Positions 17,981 to 25,318 of a stretch of 64,000 nucleotides of DNA are shown one piece after another (position 1 is the first letter of the stretch; each line of letters starts with the position of its first letter). This stretch comes from Phormidium lacuna HE10JO (GTDB lineage: Bacteria > Cyanobacteriota > Cyanobacteriia > Cyanobacteriales > JAAUUE01), in the NCBI GenBank assembly GCA_943370025.1, contig CALRPI020000022.1, positions 226 through 64,225 of the forward strand, given 5' to 3'. Made by a program: the position numbers and the translations under genes. The notes below the pieces were generated by a model, which worked only from the letters and a program-made list of their open reading frames with translations, was not told the DNA's origin and did no database searches.

Positions 17981-20900
17981 TTACCAAGGGTTGCCGATCA
18001 TGGTGAAGGCGCTCCAGTAATAAGGATGGGTTAAGCGTCGATCGCCCAGCTTTCTCAACTCGTCATTCAGGGCAAAGTTGCCCTTGGGGGTGACTAAGCT
18101 GCCGCCTTCTAGGCGCACTTCTCCCCGGAGCATTGCCAGTTGTGCCTGCCGTAGTGCTTCAGATTTGGTTGTGGTGGTTTGTAGTTGTTGATAAAACTCT
18201 GCCATCAAGCCCATAGTGCCTTCATCGCTGACTTGCCAGAGACTAGCTAGGGCAGACCGGACTCCAGAGGTGACGGCTAATCCGGCAAAACCTAGCTCGG
18301 CATCTGTATTACCTAGGGCGGTTTCGCAGGCGCTGAGGACTAAGAGGTCTACGGGAGGAGTGCCAAAACCTGTGGAGCGGATTTGCTCTAGGGTGAGTCT
18401 TTCGGTTCCCCAGAGTTGGATGTAGGAGTTGACCTTATCTCCGTAGAAGGAACCGTGGGTGGCGAGATGGACTATTCTCTGGTTTGGACTGCGGTTCTGG
18501 CGGAGATTACTCAGGGTGAAGTTTTCGTTGAGGAAAATATTTCCGCCCCGGATTTGGTTGATGGCTTTGAGTTCTACGGGAACTCCGGGTAGAGGTGGAA
18601 GATTGTCAACCACAAAGCGATCGGCTCCCATTGCCATTACTTGTGAATCTTTGAGGGAACTATAGGTGGTATCGGTCAGGGTCAATGAGGGCATCAAAGC
18701 AACGCTGTAGTCTTCGATGATGAATCGATTATCTTTGCTCTGCATGGCGGCGATCGGCATTGACCTTAATCCTCTATCCATAAGAAAGACTAGGTTATCA
18801 ATTTTTAGTCTTTTCAGGTCTTCTTCAAGAGGAGCAACAATCAGGTCATACATCCGCCTAGAGCCACGGCCATACACGCTCCTCCGGGCAACGCCTCTGG
18901 TAAGTTCCCCAGCACTTTCGAGAACTTCGGGGCGGGTTAATGCGTTATACCGAACTCTTACTAGGTCGCCAGTGGGGGGGACAAGGACAATTTCTAGGGT
19001 ATCGGTATTGCTGGGATTGCGGAAGAGTTGACTCCGGGCGGAACTGACGGAGCGGTTATTGGCAGCAGTGTCGTTGGCGGGGGAGAAGAAGACGTAGATG
19101 AGGGCTGGTTTGACGTTGGTTTGTCTGGTGATCCGGTTGAGGATGTCTTGTGCCTGATTGACATCGAGGGTGGCGACTTCATCGGCAAGTCCAGTGAAGG
19201 CTTGAAATTCTTCTTTGAAGGGGTCGTCTAGGAGGCGGATTCTGTCATTGAGGTTGATGACGGGGATTCTGTCGATGATGGGGATATTTGAGTTGGCAGT
19301 GGCTAGGGAAATGGGGGATTGTACGCCGGGGGAGGTGGCATCAAGGATTGGTCGATCGAGCACTAGAGCCACGGGAGCGGGTGGTGGCAATGGGAGTAAT
19401 GATAGTTGTTGGGGAGTTGGGATTATTACGGTCGGGACTACAGGAGGGGCTACAACTACTGTTGGTGGTGGAGGGGTTGGGGGAGTAGAAATAAATGAGG
19501 AAAGTGGTGTGGTTTCAGGGATGAGGATTGGGGGTGGTGTCCCAACAACTATAGGGTCTGGGGTTTGGGGTGGAGTTGGGTTAATTAGTAGAGAAACCAG
19601 TCCGGAAGACAAGGAAGAGGATGGGGCTGTGGAGGAGATAGAGGGAGTCGGGAGCGGAGTAGGAGAGATAGAGGGAGTCGGGAGCGGAGTAGGAGTGGGG
19701 ACTGTGGTTCTGATGGTGATGTTTGTGCCGTAGGGGTTGATGGCGGGGGGGACGGGAACAATGAGGTTATTGATGGTGTTAGTTCCAGTACCAGAGGTAA
19801 TAGCTGCCCTTGTGCCATTATTGGTGGCGTTGCCAACTAGAAAAGGAACATTAGTGCTACCACCATGAGTGATATCAATTGAGCCACCCCCTAAACCCCC
19901 TTGAGTAGAGATACTAGGTCTACTACCATCTCTTGATACTAAGAAGCTAGTATATATTCCTGGAGCAAGAAGAAATAAGTTACCTGCATTGATAGTTATA
20001 TTACCTCCATAGCCACCACTACCTACGCTTTCACTATAAATGCGATCAGTAGATAAATTACCCTGAGATGAGATGTTGATAGACCCACCATTTCCATTAG
20101 AGAAAGAATTAGAAGTAGTGTCACTAGTAATAGATAAATTACCCTGAGATGAGATATTGATAGACCCACCATTTCCATTAGAGAAAGAATTAGAACTAAT
20201 GGCACTAGTAATAGATAAATTACCCTGAGATGAGATGTTGATAGACCCACCATTTCTATCACCGTCAGAAATAATGGAATTAGTAGATAAATTACCTTGA
20301 GATGAGATGTTGAGAGACCCGCCAATTCCAGAAAGAGTCGAAGAAGAATTAATGTAACCAGTAGATAAATTACCCTGAGATGAGATGTTGAGAGACCCAC
20401 CATTTCCAGCAGAGAAAGACCTAGTGTCGTTAATATAAGAATAAGTCCTAATGTCACCAGTAGATAAATTACCCTGAGATGAGATGTTGAGAGACCCACC
20501 ATCTCTTGAGTTACCCCTATTAGCATGAGAATAAGAAATAATATCATTAGTATTGATACTCTGCGCGGTTATAGTAATGACTCCTCCACTTCCAGAATCA
20601 CCAGTTGCAGTAATGCTATTATTTTCGACCGCAGAACTACTGTTAATCTCTCCAGTAGCTCTAAAAATTCCATTATTTGTAGGAGGATTTTGATTAATCA
20701 TAATATTGCCCCCATTTCCTGCATTTCCATTTCCTGCGGAGAGAGAACGACTATCAAGGGCAAAGACAAGCCTTGGGTCAATCTGATTAATAGTTGCTCC
20801 AAGAAGAGTTATATTATTATTTATCGCATCAATATCAATATCAATATCAATATTGCCCCCATTCCCCGCAGTTCCAGATCTAGACCCTGATGTGGTATTA

Positions 20901-22909
20901 ATGCCCCTTACCGTTATGCCGCCATTAGTTGCCCTAACTACAATATTTCCCCCATTCCCAGAAGTACCTAAATCAACACGGGAATAGGCAGCAACAGCTC
21001 CTGTCAATGGATTTGAAGGTGTTCCCATATTTACACTCTGAGCAGCGATCGTTATATCGCCTGCATTGCTAGAATTACCAGAAATGTAAGGAGGAGGGTT
21101 AAGAGGAACACCATTTATATCAGCAGGCACGTTATTTACTACTGATCGACTGTCAACGTTACCAGAAATATTGATATTACCAAGGGGAGCAAGGATATTG
21201 ATTATTCCCCCAGCCCCTGCATTCCCACTACCGACACCAGACCCACTACTAATAGACCCAGCACTGATATCACCCACAGATGCAGTTAAGTTGATACTGC
21301 CCCCATTCTGAGCTGATATAGTAGAAGCATCTATATCACCCGCCGTAATACTGGCAGCACTGATAGCAATATTTCTCCCTGGCGCAACAATTCTATCCCC
21401 CGCATTCATCAAGAAATTCCCCACCCCATTCCCATCCTGATCCGCTCGAAAAGTTATGGAACCCCCCGGCGCACCAACAAAAGTTAAGGCATTGCCTGTT
21501 AAAGTCCCAAGGGTAATATTATTACTCGCCTCCAAAACCACATTTGCCGCAGCCGGCAGAGCTTGCAGCGTTGCCTGAGAAATCGTGATATCTCCCGCAC
21601 TGCAACCCACCGCCACCGTTGGCAAAGTGCAACCCCCTAAAGCATCTGCCCCATTATTAATAAAAATATTCACCGGGTCTAACAACAAAGTCCCGAAACT
21701 TCCCTGTGGCGCTGATAAATCTGCATTCCCAGCAAAGGTTAAAACCTGCGCCCCCGACACCTCGGCAAATCCGCCATTTCCAGAACTAGCTCCACCCCTA
21801 GCTGAGATATTGCCATAAAATCTGGTAGTATCATCAGCCCAAACTATTACTCTGCCACCGTTACCAGTATTCAGCGCATCCGCATTCAAGAAAGAACCAG
21901 CATCCACATAGGTAATCCGAGAATTAAACGGATTAACTCCCCCGCCCCGATATTCCCCACCAACTCGAATCGTTCCCCCGCCATTGCTACCACTAGCATT
22001 TAGATTGGCATTCACTAGGGCAACCCTGTCACCCAAAACATTAATTACCCCTCCCTGAGAACCCGTACTGAGATTTCCAGCAGTAATATTTATCCCTTGA
22101 CCAGTGGGAATATTAACCCCTGCAACTTCCACAGTTGACCCATTGCTACTAATTCCCGGTAAATCTGACCCCGTAAGTAACCGAGGCAAATCCAGAGGCG
22201 TGATCACAGAATCTACAGGAAGAACAATTTCTAAACTTAATAAATGCCCCGGCTGGGAAATCCTCACCCGATTCGTTCCCGGTACAGCCGCTAAAGTAAT
22301 ATTCCCAGCATTGATATTCCCAGTATTAACAATATTCCCCCCAATCAAACTAATCCCCTGTCCCGGAGTCACCGATAAATTCCCAGCATTGACAATACTT
22401 CCAGCTTGGTTAGTAGTGAAGAGAAAACTATCAGGATACCCAACCAAAGCCGAGAAGTTATTATCCCCAAAAGCATTAAATAAATTATTCCCAAACCCAA
22501 TTTGATTCGCTGTCGTTGCCGTAAAACTAGCAGGAATATTTAAACTTGCTCCCTGTCCAAAAACTATCCCGGCAGGATTCATCAAGAACAGGTTAGAATT
22601 TCCCCCCGTAACTTGCAATAAACCATTAATAAAAGAAGGATTTCCCCCATTGACCCTAGCCAGAATATTTTTAATCTGAGGATTGCTCAAAAAGTTGGCA
22701 ACTTGGGCAGAATTGACATTGAAATCCCGAAAACTATGGAAAAGATTTCCCCCCGCCTGAGTTCCCCCAATGATATTAATCTGGTTTCCTTGGGGATTAA
22801 CCACAGTTCCCGCACCGTTGGGGACGATCTGGGCTAGAGTTGGCGGCACAAAACCTAGGGCAAGAACTAAGCCTAGGGAGGCTTTAGCAAGACAGGGGTA
22901 GATAGACAT
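17981..22909 (-). CDS. Secreted giant protein: TPS (filamentous haemagglutinin N-terminal) domain, beta-helix repeats, Pro/Thr linker and C-terminal CHAT caspase-like domain
   Basis: 1642 aa. Signal peptide, then GNQINIIGGTQAGGNLFHSFRDFNV and LFLMNPAGIVFG (TPS domain). GGSxNISSQGNLS tandem units. PT-rich linker. CHAT domain with candidate His (VHLATHGSF) and Cys (LVLSACETALG). Confidence 0.88.
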   Translation of the reverse strand: MSIYPCLAKASLGLVLALGFVPPTLAQIVPNGAGTVVNPQGNQINIIGGTQAGGNLFHSFRDFNVNSAQVANFLSNPQIKNILARVNGGNPSFINGLLQVTGGNSNLFLMNPAGIVFGQGASLNIPASFTATTANQIGFGNNLFNAFGDNNFSALVGYPDSFLFTTNQAGSIVNAGNLSVTPGQGISLIGGNIVNTGNINAGNITLAAVPGTNRVRISQPGHLLSLEIVLPVDSVITPLDLPRLLTGSDLPGISSNGSTVEVAGVNIPTGQGINITAGNLSTGSQGGVINVLGDRVALVNANLNASGSNGGGTIRVGGEYRGGGVNPFNSRITYVDAGSFLNADALNTGNGGRVIVWADDTTRFYGNISARGGASSGNGGFAEVSGAQVLTFAGNADLSAPQGSFGTLLLDPVNIFINNGADALGGCTLPTVAVGCSAGDITISQATLQALPAAANVVLEASNNITLGTLTGNALTFVGAPGGSITFRADQDGNGVGNFLMNAGDRIVAPGRNIAISAASITAGDIDASTISAQNGGSINLTASVGDISAGSISSGSGVGSGNAGAGGIINILAPLGNINISGNVDSRSVVNNVPADINGVPLNPPPYISGNSSNAGDITIAAQSVNMGTPSNPLTGAVAAYSRVDLGTSGNGGNIVVRATNGGITVRGINTTSGSRSGTAGNGGNIDIDIDIDAINNNITLLGATINQIDPRLVFALDSRSLSAGNGNAGNGGNIMINQNPPTNNGIFRATGEINSSSAVENNSITATGDSGSGGVITITAQSINTNDIISYSHANRGNSRDGGSLNISSQGNLSTGDIRTYSYINDTRSFSAGNGGSLNISSQGNLSTGYINSSSTLSGIGGSLNISSQGNLSTNSIISDGDRNGGSINISSQGNLSITSAISSNSFSNGNGGSINISSQGNLSITSDTTSNSFSNGNGGSINISSQGNLSTDRIYSESVGSGGYGGNITINAGNLFLLAPGIYTSFLVSRDGSRPSISTQGGLGGGSIDITHGGSTNVPFLVGNATNNGTRAAITSGTGTNTINNLIVPVPPAINPYGTNITIRTTVPTPTPLPTPSISPTPLPTPSISSTAPSSSLSSGLVSLLINPTPPQTPDPIVVGTPPPILIPETTPLSSFISTPPTPPPPTVVVAPPVVPTVIIPTPQQLSLLPLPPPAPVALVLDRPILDATSPGVQSPISLATANSNIPIIDRIPVINLNDRIRLLDDPFKEEFQAFTGLADEVATLDVNQAQDILNRITRQTNVKPALIYVFFSPANDTAANNRSVSSARSQLFRNPSNTDTLEIVLVPPTGDLVRVRYNALTRPEVLESAGELTRGVARRSVYGRGSRRMYDLIVAPLEEDLKRLKIDNLVFLMDRGLRSMPIAAMQSKDNRFIIEDYSVALMPSLTLTDTTYSSLKDSQVMAMGADRFVVDNLPPLPGVPVELKAINQIRGGNIFLNENFTLSNLRQNRSPNQRIVHLATHGSFYGDKVNSYIQLWGTERLTLEQIRSTGFGTPPVDLLVLSACETALGNTDAELGFAGLAVTSGVRSALASLWQVSDEGTMGLMAEFYQQLQTTTTKSEALRQAQLAMLRGEVRLEGGSLVTPKGNFALNDELRKLGDRRLTHPYYWSAFTMIGNPW
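20040..20500 (-). repeat. Coding tandem repeats (GGSxNISSQGNLSx units) inside the TPS-CHAT gene
   Basis: gtagataaattaccctgagatgagatgttga(t/g)agacccacc recurs six times at intervals of about 60-90 nt. Confidence 0.85.
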
Positions 22910-22982: not shown

Positions 22983-23081
22983 GATCCCCCCTAGCCCCCC
23001 TTAAAAAGGGGGGAACCGTTTCAAAGTCCCCCTTTTTATAGGCTTTGCCTTCCCGTAAGGGTAGGGAGATTTAGGGGGATC
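22983..23081. repeat. About 100-bp element with terminal inverted repeats GATCCCCCCTAG and TTAGGGGGATC
   Basis: gatcccccctagccccccttaaaaaggggggaac...gggagatttagggggatc, between the cyclase and TPS-CHAT genes. Confidence 0.65.
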
Positions 23082-23329: not shown

Positions 23330-25318
23330 TTATGGAATAGATTCGGGAACCTTGTTGCCCTTGACGAGGAAAATCTCTACCTCTTTATGCTGCCCCTTGA
23401 GGTTGTCGGATCCCCAAGATTCAACCTCAAACCGATCTTCTAGGTAAATCAAGGTATCATAGCCGATTAAAATGCGGCAGTTGCTGGGTTGGATTTCTTT
23501 TTTGTAGCTTTCTAGCCGTGAAGCAGTGTTGACACTATCCCCAATCACGCCGTATTCCATCCGGTCTTTCCCCCCCAAGGAGCCAACGACAATATTGCCA
23601 GTAAAAATCCCAATCCGCATTTGAATTGTGGGCAGGTTCCGTTTGCGCCAACTATAGTTCAGCTCCTCCAGTCGATCGCCAATGGCCAAGGCTGCGTATA
23701 CCGCTCGCTGGGTATCTAAAGTCACCTCAGCATTTTGGACTCGGGACATCGGCACGCCAAAAACCGCCATTACTCCATCCCCGGTAAATTTATTAATGAT
23801 CCCTTCCCGGAGCATTATTTCCGTCGTAATTTCCTCCAAAATTTCATTGAGCCATACTAAAAGCGACTCTGGGGGCATGGTTTCCGAAATTGTACTAAAG
23901 CCCTTAATATCCAGAAATAGCATGGTGGCTGTGAGCTTAATCCCCGGTAGTTTGCCAGATTTCAACAGGCGATCGCGTCCCTGCCAGAGGGCTTCGGCAA
24001 TTTCTGGGGAAGTATTTTGCCCCAAGAGCTTCATGACGATCGTATTCTTTTGCCGGGCTTCGTAGGCTTGGTAGGTGACCACAATGGTCATGGTCAGGAT
24101 AAATCCCACCGCAGGCGTAGCCAGGGGGATTAGAACAGAGGTGTTAAAAAAATAAACCCCGGTGGCGAGGATGATTGCCCCACATCCTAAGGCTCCCAGC
24201 AGCAGAGAAGAAGGATGCCGCATTAGCCAAGGCAGCAACGCTCCCAAGAGAATCCAGCCACCGATCCAAGTCCATTCCCAAGAATTTTGCCAAAACCTAA
24301 ATAGGGGACGATCGCCCTTGGCTGCGTCTAAAAATTGACTGACCATCTGGGCATGAACTCTCACCCCCGGCATCTTAAAATCATCCTTGAGGACAGGACT
24401 GAAGGGGGTAAAGAAATCATCCTTGAGACTGCTGGCCGTGGAGCCGATCAGGACAATCTTATCCTTGACTATTTTCGGATCAACCTTGCCCGTCAAAAAA
24501 GCCGTCAGACTAATTTCCTTAGCCACATTCCCTGCATTCCGATAGTTAAGAATAATTTGCATCCCCCCAGAATCGAAGTTTTTGTAGATCCCCGCCGAAG
24601 GTCTCAGGGGATATAGCACCGCCTTGCCCAATTGCATATAATCAGGATTCTCTTGGCTTGGTTGGGGGCTAATGCCTTCCTTTTGTAAATAGTTAATAGC
24701 TACTTGCATGGCAAAAGAGGCGACTAGTTGCCCATCGCCGGGGGATTCTGCTAACCAAAGATTCCGCCGTACTGCATTGTCTGTAGTATCGATCGCAATA
24801 TCATTAAACCCGACTTGATTGGGGTCAACTCCCGGCGGTGCTGGGGTATCCCTGACGAGATCAAGGCTGCGGACATTGATCACATTGGGCTTCTGGAGTT
24901 GAGTCAGCAGACGAGTGCCGCCATTTTCTTCCTTGGGTTCTACCGGCAGGTTGCGATACAAATCTAGACCAATGACTCTAGGTTGATTAGCTTGGAGTTT
25001 TTCTAGGAGACTGGCAAGGGTCTTGTCTGGGAACGGCCAACGATTTTGCTCCCGCAAGTCAGCCTCAGTAATTCCAATAATCAGGATGCGGGGATCTGAG
25101 GACAATTGGTCTCGCGATCGCACCATATAATCAAAAACTCGTAACTCCCAATGCTGAAAATGTCCCCCAGTGCGGAGACCGATGATGATACCAGAAACTG
25201 TGATAGTGGCAATCGCCACTAATTTTGCACCATCAAGGTCTGGCAACTTGCTAATAATCTTATTAACCCAGTAGGGAAGGCGTTTAAGCATCATCTGGTA
25301 TCTCAATGGTATAAACAA
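23330..25318 (-). CDS. CHASE2 sensor fused to a class III adenylate/guanylate cyclase
   Basis: 662 aa. N-terminal TM, periplasmic CHASE2-like region, three or four TM helices, then a cyclase domain (MLFLDIKGFS, FTGDGVMAVFG, GDSVNTASRLES). Confidence 0.88.
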   Translation of the reverse strand: MFIPLRYQMMLKRLPYWVNKIISKLPDLDGAKLVAIATITVSGIIIGLRTGGHFQHWELRVFDYMVRSRDQLSSDPRILIIGITEADLREQNRWPFPDKTLASLLEKLQANQPRVIGLDLYRNLPVEPKEENGGTRLLTQLQKPNVINVRSLDLVRDTPAPPGVDPNQVGFNDIAIDTTDNAVRRNLWLAESPGDGQLVASFAMQVAINYLQKEGISPQPSQENPDYMQLGKAVLYPLRPSAGIYKNFDSGGMQIILNYRNAGNVAKEISLTAFLTGKVDPKIVKDKIVLIGSTASSLKDDFFTPFSPVLKDDFKMPGVRVHAQMVSQFLDAAKGDRPLFRFWQNSWEWTWIGGWILLGALLPWLMRHPSSLLLGALGCGAIILATGVYFFNTSVLIPLATPAVGFILTMTIVVTYQAYEARQKNTIVMKLLGQNTSPEIAEALWQGRDRLLKSGKLPGIKLTATMLFLDIKGFSTISETMPPESLLVWLNEILEEITTEIMLREGIINKFTGDGVMAVFGVPMSRVQNAEVTLDTQRAVYAALAIGDRLEELNYSWRKRNLPTIQMRIGIFTGNIVVGSLGGKDRMEYGVIGDSVNTASRLESYKKEIQPSNCRILIGYDTLIYLEDRFEVESWGSDNLKGQHKEVEIFLVKGNKVPESIP

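Follow-up and report, generated by a model that had tools for sequence, protein, structure and literature searches.

A widespread TpsA variant with a predicted built-in CHAT protease in the cyanobacterium Phormidium lacuna HE10JO

Two-partner secretion (TPS), in which a TpsA exoprotein is exported through a TpsB transporter, is textbook knowledge for adhesins, cytolysins and contact-dependent inhibition (CDI) toxins. The C-terminus of a TpsA protein does not always leave the cell, since FhaB retains in the periplasm a large, maturation-controlling C-terminal region with a proline-rich segment (Noel et al. 2012, cited in PMC5422565), and the tail of the adhesin CdrA is likewise periplasmic and is cut for release by LapG, a periplasmic cysteine protease (PMC5422565). 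In other TpsA proteins, functional C-terminal domains are exposed outside the cell, and some TpsB proteins export more than one TpsA (PMC5422565). The word 'CHAT' is absent from the same review, as is any TpsA protein with a caspase-fold protease of its own. An extracytoplasmic CHAT domain has been described in DdvA, where a TPR-CHAT region with a canonical H862/C907 dyad lies in the periplasm next to a flexible linker and where self-cleavage was proposed by the authors (PMC11506125). Here, we analyzed a gene from Phormidium lacuna HE10JO, a metagenome-assembled genome (MAG) from lake water, that joins a TPS domain to a CHAT domain. The gene occupies positions 17981-22909 of a 64,000-nucleotide stretch of contig CALRPI020000022.1 (assembly GCA_943370025.1), hereafter called the window. 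The best joint explanation, to which we assign a probability of roughly 60% including the export route proposed below, is that the product is a TpsA-type (type Vb) exoprotein whose C-terminus forms a built-in CHAT (caspase-fold, clan CD) protease that is predicted to be catalytically competent. The gene features are as follows.

17981-22909, reverse strand: whole TPS-CHAT gene, 1642 aa plus stop codon (open reading frame list, translation, Pfam TPS and CHAT matches)
22832-22909, reverse strand: predicted Sec signal peptide, residues 1-26, with the cut between MSIYPCLAKASLGLVLALGFVPPTLA and QIV (read by eye from the sequence)
22244-22831, reverse strand: TPS secretion domain, residues 27-222, with the NPNG-type motif in NSNLFLMNPAGIVFG (PF05860, TIGR01901, EtpA homology)
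19709-22243, reverse strand: predicted Gly/Ser/Asn-rich beta-helix passenger, residues 223-1067 (composition, repeats found by Tandem Repeats Finder, TRF)
19238-19708, reverse strand: Pro/Thr/Ser-rich linker, residues 1068-1224 (157 aa), 26% Pro (composition)
17984-19237, reverse strand: predicted two-lobed CHAT protease module, residues 1225-1642 (AlphaFold2 model, Foldseek)
18455-18457, reverse strand: predicted catalytic His1485 (HLATHG; invariant in the CHAT alignment, aligns to H585 of 7x8a_D)
18326-18328, reverse strand: predicted catalytic Cys1528 (LSACET; invariant in the CHAT alignment, aligns to C627 of 7x8a_D)

The gene starts with ATG and is read in a single uninterrupted frame with zero internal stops in the open reading frame (ORF) list and its translation. 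The signal peptide, TPS domain, Gly/Asn/Ser-rich passenger, Pro/Thr linker and CHAT domain that an earlier sequence-only reading had described were all recovered in the same places by Pfam, NCBIfam, composition and, for the signal peptide, reading by eye. The two codons it had named for the catalytic pair correspond exactly to H1485 and C1528, with the quoted motifs present, and its estimate for the linker (nt ~19365-19715) was close to the measured extent.

Residues 1-26 show a basic n-region, a hydrophobic core and a T-L-A/Q cleavage site. The Pfam TPS model PF05860 matched residues 27-222 (E 1.7e-40; 140 bits against a cut-off of 33.5) and the NCBIfam model TIGR01901 for the filamentous haemagglutinin N-terminal domain matched residues 57-135 (83 bits against a cut-off of 29.1), and the conserved NPNG-type motif is present as LFLMNPAGIVFG. 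Homology to EtpA, a TPS exoprotein of solved structure (8cpk, E 5.6e-20), extends over residues 23-396, and HxuA (4i84, E 1e-4) is a weaker homologue of the N-terminal part. Beyond this stretch, the beta-helix at residues 400-1067 is predicted from the Gly/Ser/Asn-rich repeats. Over residues 223-1067 the composition is 16% Gly, 13% Ser and 12% Asn, and the passenger includes six 'NISSQGNLS' units encoded by a tandem array at 20050-20419 (TRF, period 81 nt, 4.7 copies). The whole protein contains four cysteines, namely C6 in the signal peptide, the pair Cys427/Cys436 within the beta-helix passenger, and the predicted catalytic C1528, which is the only cysteine in the last 1200 residues; this scarcity is compatible with an oxidising compartment. 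The linker carries a perfect 30-nt direct duplication at 19635-19695 (TPLPTPSIS twice; TRF), which fits recent slippage and length variation of the linker.

The Pfam CHAT model PF12770 matched residues 1350-1640 (nt 17990-18862; E 5.3e-67; 226.7 bits against a cut-off of 24) over profile positions 4-289 of 289. With the CHAT region as a single-sequence phmmer query, no matches were obtained in the PDB, and a profile built from the CHAT domains of the genome was therefore needed. In the alignment used for this profile, comprising 13 diverse CHAT domains, all from this genome, H1481, H1485 and C1528 are invariant. The profile matched the TPR-CHAT chains of Craspase (E about 1e-9), and alignment onto chain 7x8a_D placed H1485-G on H585-G586 and A-C1528 on A626-C627. 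We take H585 and C627 of this chain to be the catalytic dyad of Craspase. The profile alignment of the dyad had been named by the sequence-only reading as a check on its protease call, and because both residues are present at the canonical positions the call stands, with activity itself being predicted.

The AlphaFold2 model of residues 1225-1642, made from an input alignment of 14 sequences, reached a mean predicted local distance difference test score (pLDDT) of 85 and a predicted template modelling score (pTM) of 0.88. In a Foldseek search, about 395 of the 418 model residues aligned to Csx29/TPR-CHAT with E-values down to 1e-13, and the other matches included separase, the periplasmic TPR-CHAT of DdvA (E 2e-5), SAVED-CHAT, gingipain RgpB and caspase-1/-4. 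The model thus supports a caspase/separase-type fold for residues 1225-1642. Since the structural alignment extends over about 395 residues, the functional unit is larger than the Pfam CHAT match, and based on the model we take it to be a two-lobed module with a pseudo-protease lobe and an active lobe, as in separase and Craspase. The module begins right after the linker, at the conserved motif RLLDDPFKEEFQ.

No TpsB-like ORF is encoded within the window, in agreement with the sequence-only reading, which had remarked that TPS passengers normally need an adjacent transporter and had proposed a genome search for POTRA/ShlB-type transporters. This search identified one POTRA_2+ShlB gene in the genome, located on another contig (C58:26221-28014) and encoding a TpsB of 597 aa (574 aa from a likely internal Met start) with its own signal peptide. 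The assembly has a completeness score of 99.99% and contains no further gene of this kind; a second, weak ShlB match corresponds to a BamA-like protein of 841 aa. The genome has 20 TPS-domain loci, every one a member of the TPS-CHAT family, and because the genome has no other TPS-domain proteins, these are the only candidate substrates of the single TpsB. The TPS domains of the paralogues are 47-93% identical to that of the window protein, and that of the TpsB-adjacent copy is 74% identical. This copy stands divergent to the TpsB gene (the pair spans C58:26221-31456), encodes 1065 aa, and ends after the pseudo-protease lobe without the His/Cys dyad. The same divergent pair of tpsB and a CHAT-less or CHAT-truncated tpsA was observed in three congeners (G001, G002 and G004; L064-L066), with TpsA partners of 1174 aa, 909 aa and one cut by a contig end, while the contig of a fourth congener, G003, ends at TpsB. 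These pairs suggest that the copy beside tpsB is a conserved non-catalytic 'cognate' tpsA and not a pseudogene that arose at random. A Synechococcales MAG (L138) has an intact 1627-aa TPS-CHAT gene divergent to a TpsB with 45% identity to the one on C58, and thus full TPS-CHAT fusions can be the adjacent partner of a TpsB. Judging from gene content, about 20 dispersed paralogues probably share one outer-membrane exporter encoded in trans, and export of the TPS-CHAT protein through this shared TpsB is likely.

The 20 loci comprise 15 intact TPS-CHAT fusions, which span 869-1814 aa and retain the signal peptide, the TPS domain and the dyad, one split member (C24), one member broken across contigs (C153/C152), two with a truncated CHAT domain (C16 and C58) and one remnant (C96). 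The split member (C24:11179-17175) is divided into ORFs of 247 aa and 1739 aa, the copy at C16:63211-66867 has a TAG inside the CHAT region, a CHAT remnant with two TGA codons (C47:35250-35747) adjoins an intact copy, and the C96 remnant (C96:5863-7064) is short; the breaks in these four may stem from sequencing errors. Identity between the window protein and 14 paralogues, measured in 100-residue windows, was 75-95% to the closest paralogues over residues 1-400, mostly 20-50% over residues 400-1100, and 85-99% to several paralogues over residues 1300-1642. The closest paralogue changes along the protein, being C21, C10 and C19 at the N-terminus, C10 and C19 at residues 401-500, C24 and C152 at residues 1201-1300, and C18 and C21 at residues 1501-1600. 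The paralogues are mosaics with constant TPS and CHAT ends and a hypervariable centre, a pattern that fits recombination or gene conversion keeping the ends alike while the predicted surface-exposed centre diversifies.

Some members of the genome depart from this architecture. A 508-aa protein (C54:16135-17661) joins a signal peptide via a short spacer to a two-lobed CHAT module of the same clade (41-50% identity), has no TPS domain or beta-helix, and looks like a Sec-only, presumably periplasmic, version of the CHAT module. Two TPS-bearing paralogues (C79:153-4232 and C47:31266-35207) carry a CHAT domain of a different clade, 32-33% identical to that of the window protein and resembling the TPR-CHAT proteins of the genome with an 'HWATHG' motif, which suggests that TPS and CHAT have been joined more than once or that the C-terminal module has been swapped. 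No genes were found to be conserved next to the paralogues in this genome except generic families of ABC and response-regulator proteins. Beside several paralogues, ORFs of about 200 aa recur (C3:29025-29627, C19:42500-43102, C58:31529-31909 and others); judged by eye from one sequence they look like Uma2-family endonucleases and were taken as unrelated.

Searching a protein collection with the TPS-CHAT protein gave 1359 significant matches, 120 of which were listed. Nearly all of the 120 combine PF05860 with PF12770 in proteins of 1100-2800 aa, and those with a named source are from cyanobacteria such as Microcoleus, Oscillatoria, Laspinema, Trichocoleus, Coleofasciculus, Allocoleopsis and Nostoc. 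The listed proteins are annotated just as 'CHAT domain-containing' or 'filamentous hemagglutinin family'. Scanning species-representative genomes with the CHAT-module alignment revealed 563 loci, and the following statistics rest on the best 80 of these, with home-made hidden Markov models and ORFs called by length. All of the 80 are labelled as cyanobacteria, most of them from filamentous genera, except for one Sericytochromatia MAG, and one or more intact fusions (median 1611 aa) are encoded in 60 of the 80. Fusions often occur in tandem arrays, L118 for example having three or four. Considering the 31 of the 80 loci that are well flanked (at least 5 kb on both sides), most fused TPS-CHAT genes stand alone: a TpsB gene lies within 10 kb in three and is absent in 28, a CHASE2 gene is present in five, and a DUF928 gene is present in five. 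Three full-length homologues on long contigs were inspected, and within 10 kb none of them has a TpsB or CHASE2 gene. Counted over this genome and 40 relatives from the same order (41 genomes in all), TPS-domain matches number 358 against 140 ShlB matches, the latter total including weak BamA-type matches, and the four congeners have 6-8 TPS against 1-2 ShlB matches. The orphan condition, that is, no adjacent TpsB, is thus usual for the TPS-CHAT family. The absence of a transporter near the window gene therefore stands as originally reported, but it ceases to be a puzzle, because a TpsB is available in trans and orphan loci are usual across the family; the locus is accordingly less surprising than it first looked. 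Six of the homologues in the protein collection (P0035, P0055, P0074, P0083, P0101 and P0102) and one genomic locus (L063:10001-14779) have extra precomputed Pfam matches to glycosyltransferase family 2 models (PF00535, PF10111 and PF13641), which may reflect a real extra domain or a spurious match to a repetitive region.

Literature searches, including those with filamentous haemagglutinin, CHASE2 and DUF928, found no paper treating TPS and CHAT together, and mentions of 'CHAT domain' in the cyanobacterial papers that were checked were unrelated. The architecture is thus common in databases yet uncharacterised in the literature found, and the window gene is, by its predicted domains, a member of a widespread and uncharacterised TpsA variant with a built-in caspase-fold protease.

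Upstream of the TPS-CHAT gene, two further features were identified.

23330-25318, reverse strand: gene for CHASE2 and a class III nucleotide cyclase, 662 aa, upstream and co-oriented (PF05226, E 1.3e-67; PF00211, E 4.8e-20)
23010-23032, reverse strand: terminator-like hairpin and T-run in the 420-nt gap between the CHASE2-cyclase and TPS-CHAT genes (consensus scan, low weight)

In the region, promoter and terminator scans did not give more sites than shuffled sequence. The cyclase domain of the 23330-25318 protein also matched the PADLOC models for PycC, the Pycsar cyclase (E 2.6e-25), which most likely reflects generic class III cyclase similarity rather than a role in defence. When the CHASE2-cyclase protein was searched in 12 relatives, many CHASE2 genes were found to share contigs with TPS or ShlB matches, and 18 such regions were fetched. 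In nine of the 18 (from G006, G008, G010 and G011), a signal-peptide-bearing TPR-CHAT gene (850-960 aa) occurs with DUF928 and with CHASE2 proteins of various outputs, and in eight of these nine the fetched stretch also includes a TPS gene of about 800-1100 aa. TpsB was present in four of the fetched regions, two of them overlapping. In these relatives (L049-L060), TPS, TPR-CHAT, DUF928 and CHASE2 are thus separate neighbouring genes, whereas the window has a TPS-CHAT fusion beside CHASE2; compared with the cassette of the relatives, it is without DUF928 and TpsB, and its CHAT module is without the TPR arm. Pairs of DUF928 and CHASE2 genes are also found directly beside fused TPS-CHAT genes (L080, L081, L084, L087, L088, L110 and L131), and this is the case in five of the 31 well-flanked loci. 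The genome itself has four DUF928 genes on contigs C1 and C38. Three of them are in tandem (C38:32594-35247), none near a TPS-CHAT gene, and the fourth forms a pair with CHASE2 followed by a response regulator (C1:17166-20684), also not near a TPS-CHAT gene. The upstream CHASE2-cyclase fits the recurrent TPS / CHAT / DUF928 / CHASE2 / TpsB neighbourhood of relatives, while its adjacency to a TPS-CHAT gene is not conserved within the genus, and it is possible that it is a functional partner of the TPS-CHAT protein.

Based on these observations, we propose the following route for the TPS-CHAT protein. The precursor would be exported by Sec, with the signal peptide cut after A26 as its sequence suggests. 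The TPS domain would then dock on the POTRA domains of the only TpsB, which is supplied in trans from C58:26221-28014, as is indicated by gene content and by cognate pairs elsewhere, and the beta-helix would thread out and fold on the cell surface, which is established behaviour for TpsA proteins. Finally, the Pro-rich linker would span the pore and the wall, and the CHAT module would stay in the periplasm as a regulated protease. There, it might free the fibre by cutting its own linker, much as LapG does for CdrA and as has been suggested for DdvA, or it might act on partners in the periplasm, for example DUF928 or CHASE2 proteins, and so feed the neighbouring CHASE2 cyclase. The steps up to surface folding are well supported by the sequence features and by gene content. 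Given export, we consider retention of the CHAT module in the periplasm to have a somewhat better than even chance. This topology is favoured because the unfused TPR-CHAT genes of related clusters all begin with signal-peptide-like segments and have no TPS domain, because the 508-aa paralogue on C54 likewise has a Sec signal only, because the recurrent partners CHASE2 and DUF928 face the periplasm, because of the precedents of FhaB, CdrA and DdvA, and because the 157-residue linker is, by estimate, long enough to span the TpsB pore and the wall. The single cysteine of the CHAT module also fits the periplasm. On this topology, the protein would be a fibre carrying its own release or relay protease.

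Several observations weigh against the proposed exoprotein and its route. The neighbour of the TpsB gene is itself without the catalytic half of CHAT, and a second TpsB could be hidden in the draft MAG of 171 contigs. The sequencing runs that contain the sequence are DNA metagenomes, with no RNA runs among them. The paralogues other than the window copy have no conserved neighbours, and none of the other 14 intact ones has a CHASE2 neighbour. Two congeners, G003 and G004, keep the synteny of orthologous CHASE2-cyclase and BT1 transporter genes with no TPS-CHAT gene downstream, no DUF928 gene is present in the 64-kb window, and the terminator-like hairpin separates the CHASE2-cyclase from the TPS-CHAT gene. 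Finally, since no secretion-arrest element was identified in the sequence, the CHAT module may be exported to the surface.

The last point leads to the alternative that the whole passenger including CHAT passes through TpsB and acts as a surface-displayed or released protease on proteins of the matrix, the sheath or neighbouring filaments. The C-terminal domains that other TpsA proteins expose outside the cell provide a precedent, the long linker could act as a stalk, a single cysteine would suit any oxidising compartment, and the extracellular clan CD proteases, with gingipain RgpB among the fold matches, make such a protease chemically feasible. We nevertheless find it rather unlikely, as the unfused CHAT homologues of related clusters carry Sec signals only, CHASE2 and DUF928, which recur as partners, belong to the periplasm or the inner membrane, and a hypervariable stalk with a constant tip would be an unusual design for a surface enzyme that has to recognise substrates. 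The exported or surface-displayed protease of the sequence-only reading is thus upheld as to predicted export, with surface display as one possible topology and the Sec-only CHAT homologues pointing to the periplasm. A dedicated sensor/effector unit at the locus, in which the CHASE2-cyclase would sense the state or the cleavage products of the adjacent TpsA and respond with cyclic AMP or cyclic GMP, is compatible with the periplasmic protease that we prefer and can be put forward tentatively. The two genes are co-oriented neighbours, CHASE2 recurs both in TPS/CHAT/DUF928 clusters, with at least 12 loci spread over five relatives, and beside fused TPS-CHAT genes, the CHASE2 cyclases of S. meliloti respond to a protein signal via an outer-membrane barrel protein (PMC13001267), and chance adjacency is roughly estimated at ~3% (19 paralogues, 3-4 CHASE2 genes and about 4500 ORFs). 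The gap with its hairpin, the CHASE2-cyclase loci of G003 and G004, the 14 intact paralogues with other neighbours, and DUF928, which accompanies CHASE2 in the other cases and is missing from the window, all speak against such a unit.

Two further explanations concern the family as a whole. A CDI-like polymorphic toxin, with CHAT delivered into neighbouring cells and an immunity protein protecting the producer, is suggested by the resemblance of the TPS domain and long beta-helix to CdiA, by the many paralogues, and by a 'VENN' tetrapeptide at residue 761. In CdiA the arrangement is the reverse of that seen here, where conservation is highest at the C-terminus and the variation lies in the centre. 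Downstream of the paralogues there is no small ORF that is conserved, Pfam found no PT-VENN or pretoxin domain, none of the 14 paralogues in the alignment has the VENN, which is 880 residues away from the C-terminus, and no PADLOC match was obtained. We regard a toxin of this kind as extremely improbable and rejected it because the pattern of conservation is inverted, no immunity ORF was found and the VENN is not conserved. Contact-dependent antagonism, one of the roles offered in the sequence-only reading, is disfavoured for the conserved C-terminus and the lack of a conserved downstream immunity-like gene. A defence-system role was also considered and rejected, as no PADLOC family matches the TPS-CHAT protein of the window. 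The paralogues could otherwise be non-functional orphans, that is, unexported and decaying copies or a recombination reservoir for one expressed locus, as the broken members (C24, C16, C58, C96 and C47:35250-35747) and the mosaic identity pattern, suggestive of recombination among copies, might indicate. That 15 copies keep uninterrupted frames with signal peptide, TPS domain and dyad, and that intact orphan copies are the rule across many cyanobacterial genera, makes this very improbable.

The main interest of the locus lies in the 20-to-1 ratio of paralogues to transporter, in the mosaic diversification, and in the link to CHASE2 and DUF928. Twenty loci with similar ends and a diverging middle and a single transporter suggest a surface repertoire under diversifying selection that is joined to a constant enzymatic output, and the linkage of TPS, CHAT, DUF928 and CHASE2 genes provides a testable lead on the substrates of extracytoplasmic CHAT proteases and on the inputs of CHASE2 sensors. 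A more speculative extension, which we consider doubtful, is a trans-envelope proteolytic relay in which the Pro-rich linker, passing through the TpsB pore, tethers the hypervariable surface beta-helix to a latent periplasmic protease. Engagement of or damage to the fibre by kin filaments, phage, grazers or shear would trigger a cut in its own linker or in DUF928/CHASE2 partners and thereby cyclic-nucleotide signalling. If so, the long-unknown input of CHASE2 sensors would be a proteolytic event, and the ~20 mosaic paralogues would be a diversified repertoire of surface probes sharing one exporter.

Compared with known systems, the TPS-CHAT protein shares with FhaB/FhaC of Bordetella the Sec signal, the TPS domain, the beta-helical passenger and an exporter with POTRA domains and a barrel, and FhaC also exports more than one TpsA. 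The FhaB prodomain differs in not being a protease and is degraded by separate proteases, and fhaB and fhaC are adjacent, whereas the predicted C-terminal module described here is an intact CHAT protease and the TpsB is encoded in trans for up to about 20 paralogues. EtpA of enterotoxigenic Escherichia coli (ETEC) and HxuA of H. influenzae are homologous over the TPS domain and the first beta-helix coils; unlike the TPS-CHAT protein, they are adhesin or haem-acquisition passengers with no protease domain and are encoded beside their own TpsB. CdiA/CdiB also combine a TPS domain with a long filamentous passenger and a functional C-terminal domain, but in CdiA the body is conserved and the toxin tip is variable, with an immunity gene coming after it, while the TPS-CHAT proteins have a conserved tip and a variable body, with no immunity gene found.

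For the C-terminal module, the TPR-CHAT of Craspase (Csx29) and separase are the best structural matches to residues 1225-1642, covering both lobes with the dyad aligned, although they are cytoplasmic, TPR-bearing and regulated by RNA-guided Cas7-11 or by securin, with 12-15% sequence identity. DdvA from Myxococcus xanthus (PDB 8rot) is closer in setting, being an extracytoplasmic CHAT protein with a His-Cys dyad, a long flexible linker and proposed self-cleavage (PMC11506125), but it is an inner-membrane anti-sigma factor with TPR repeats and putative protease activity, and has no TPS domain or beta-helix. The upstream gene resembles CyaD1, CyaD2 and CyaK of S. meliloti, which act with NsrA and likewise combine CHASE2 with a class III cyclase, activated by a protein signal via an outer-membrane beta-barrel protein (PMC13001267); that system is not known to include TPS or CHAT components. 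The best analogy, one of function with no homology claimed, is CdrA/CdrB with LapG/LapD of Pseudomonas aeruginosa, in which the periplasmic tail of a TPS adhesin is cut by a periplasmic cysteine protease under second-messenger control (PMC5422565). LapG is a separate protein and not of the CHAT/caspase fold, and LapD is an inside-out cyclic di-GMP receptor and not a CHASE2 cyclase, but the combination of a TpsA protein, a periplasmic cysteine protease and a nucleotide-signalling membrane protein is the one that the window locus would share.

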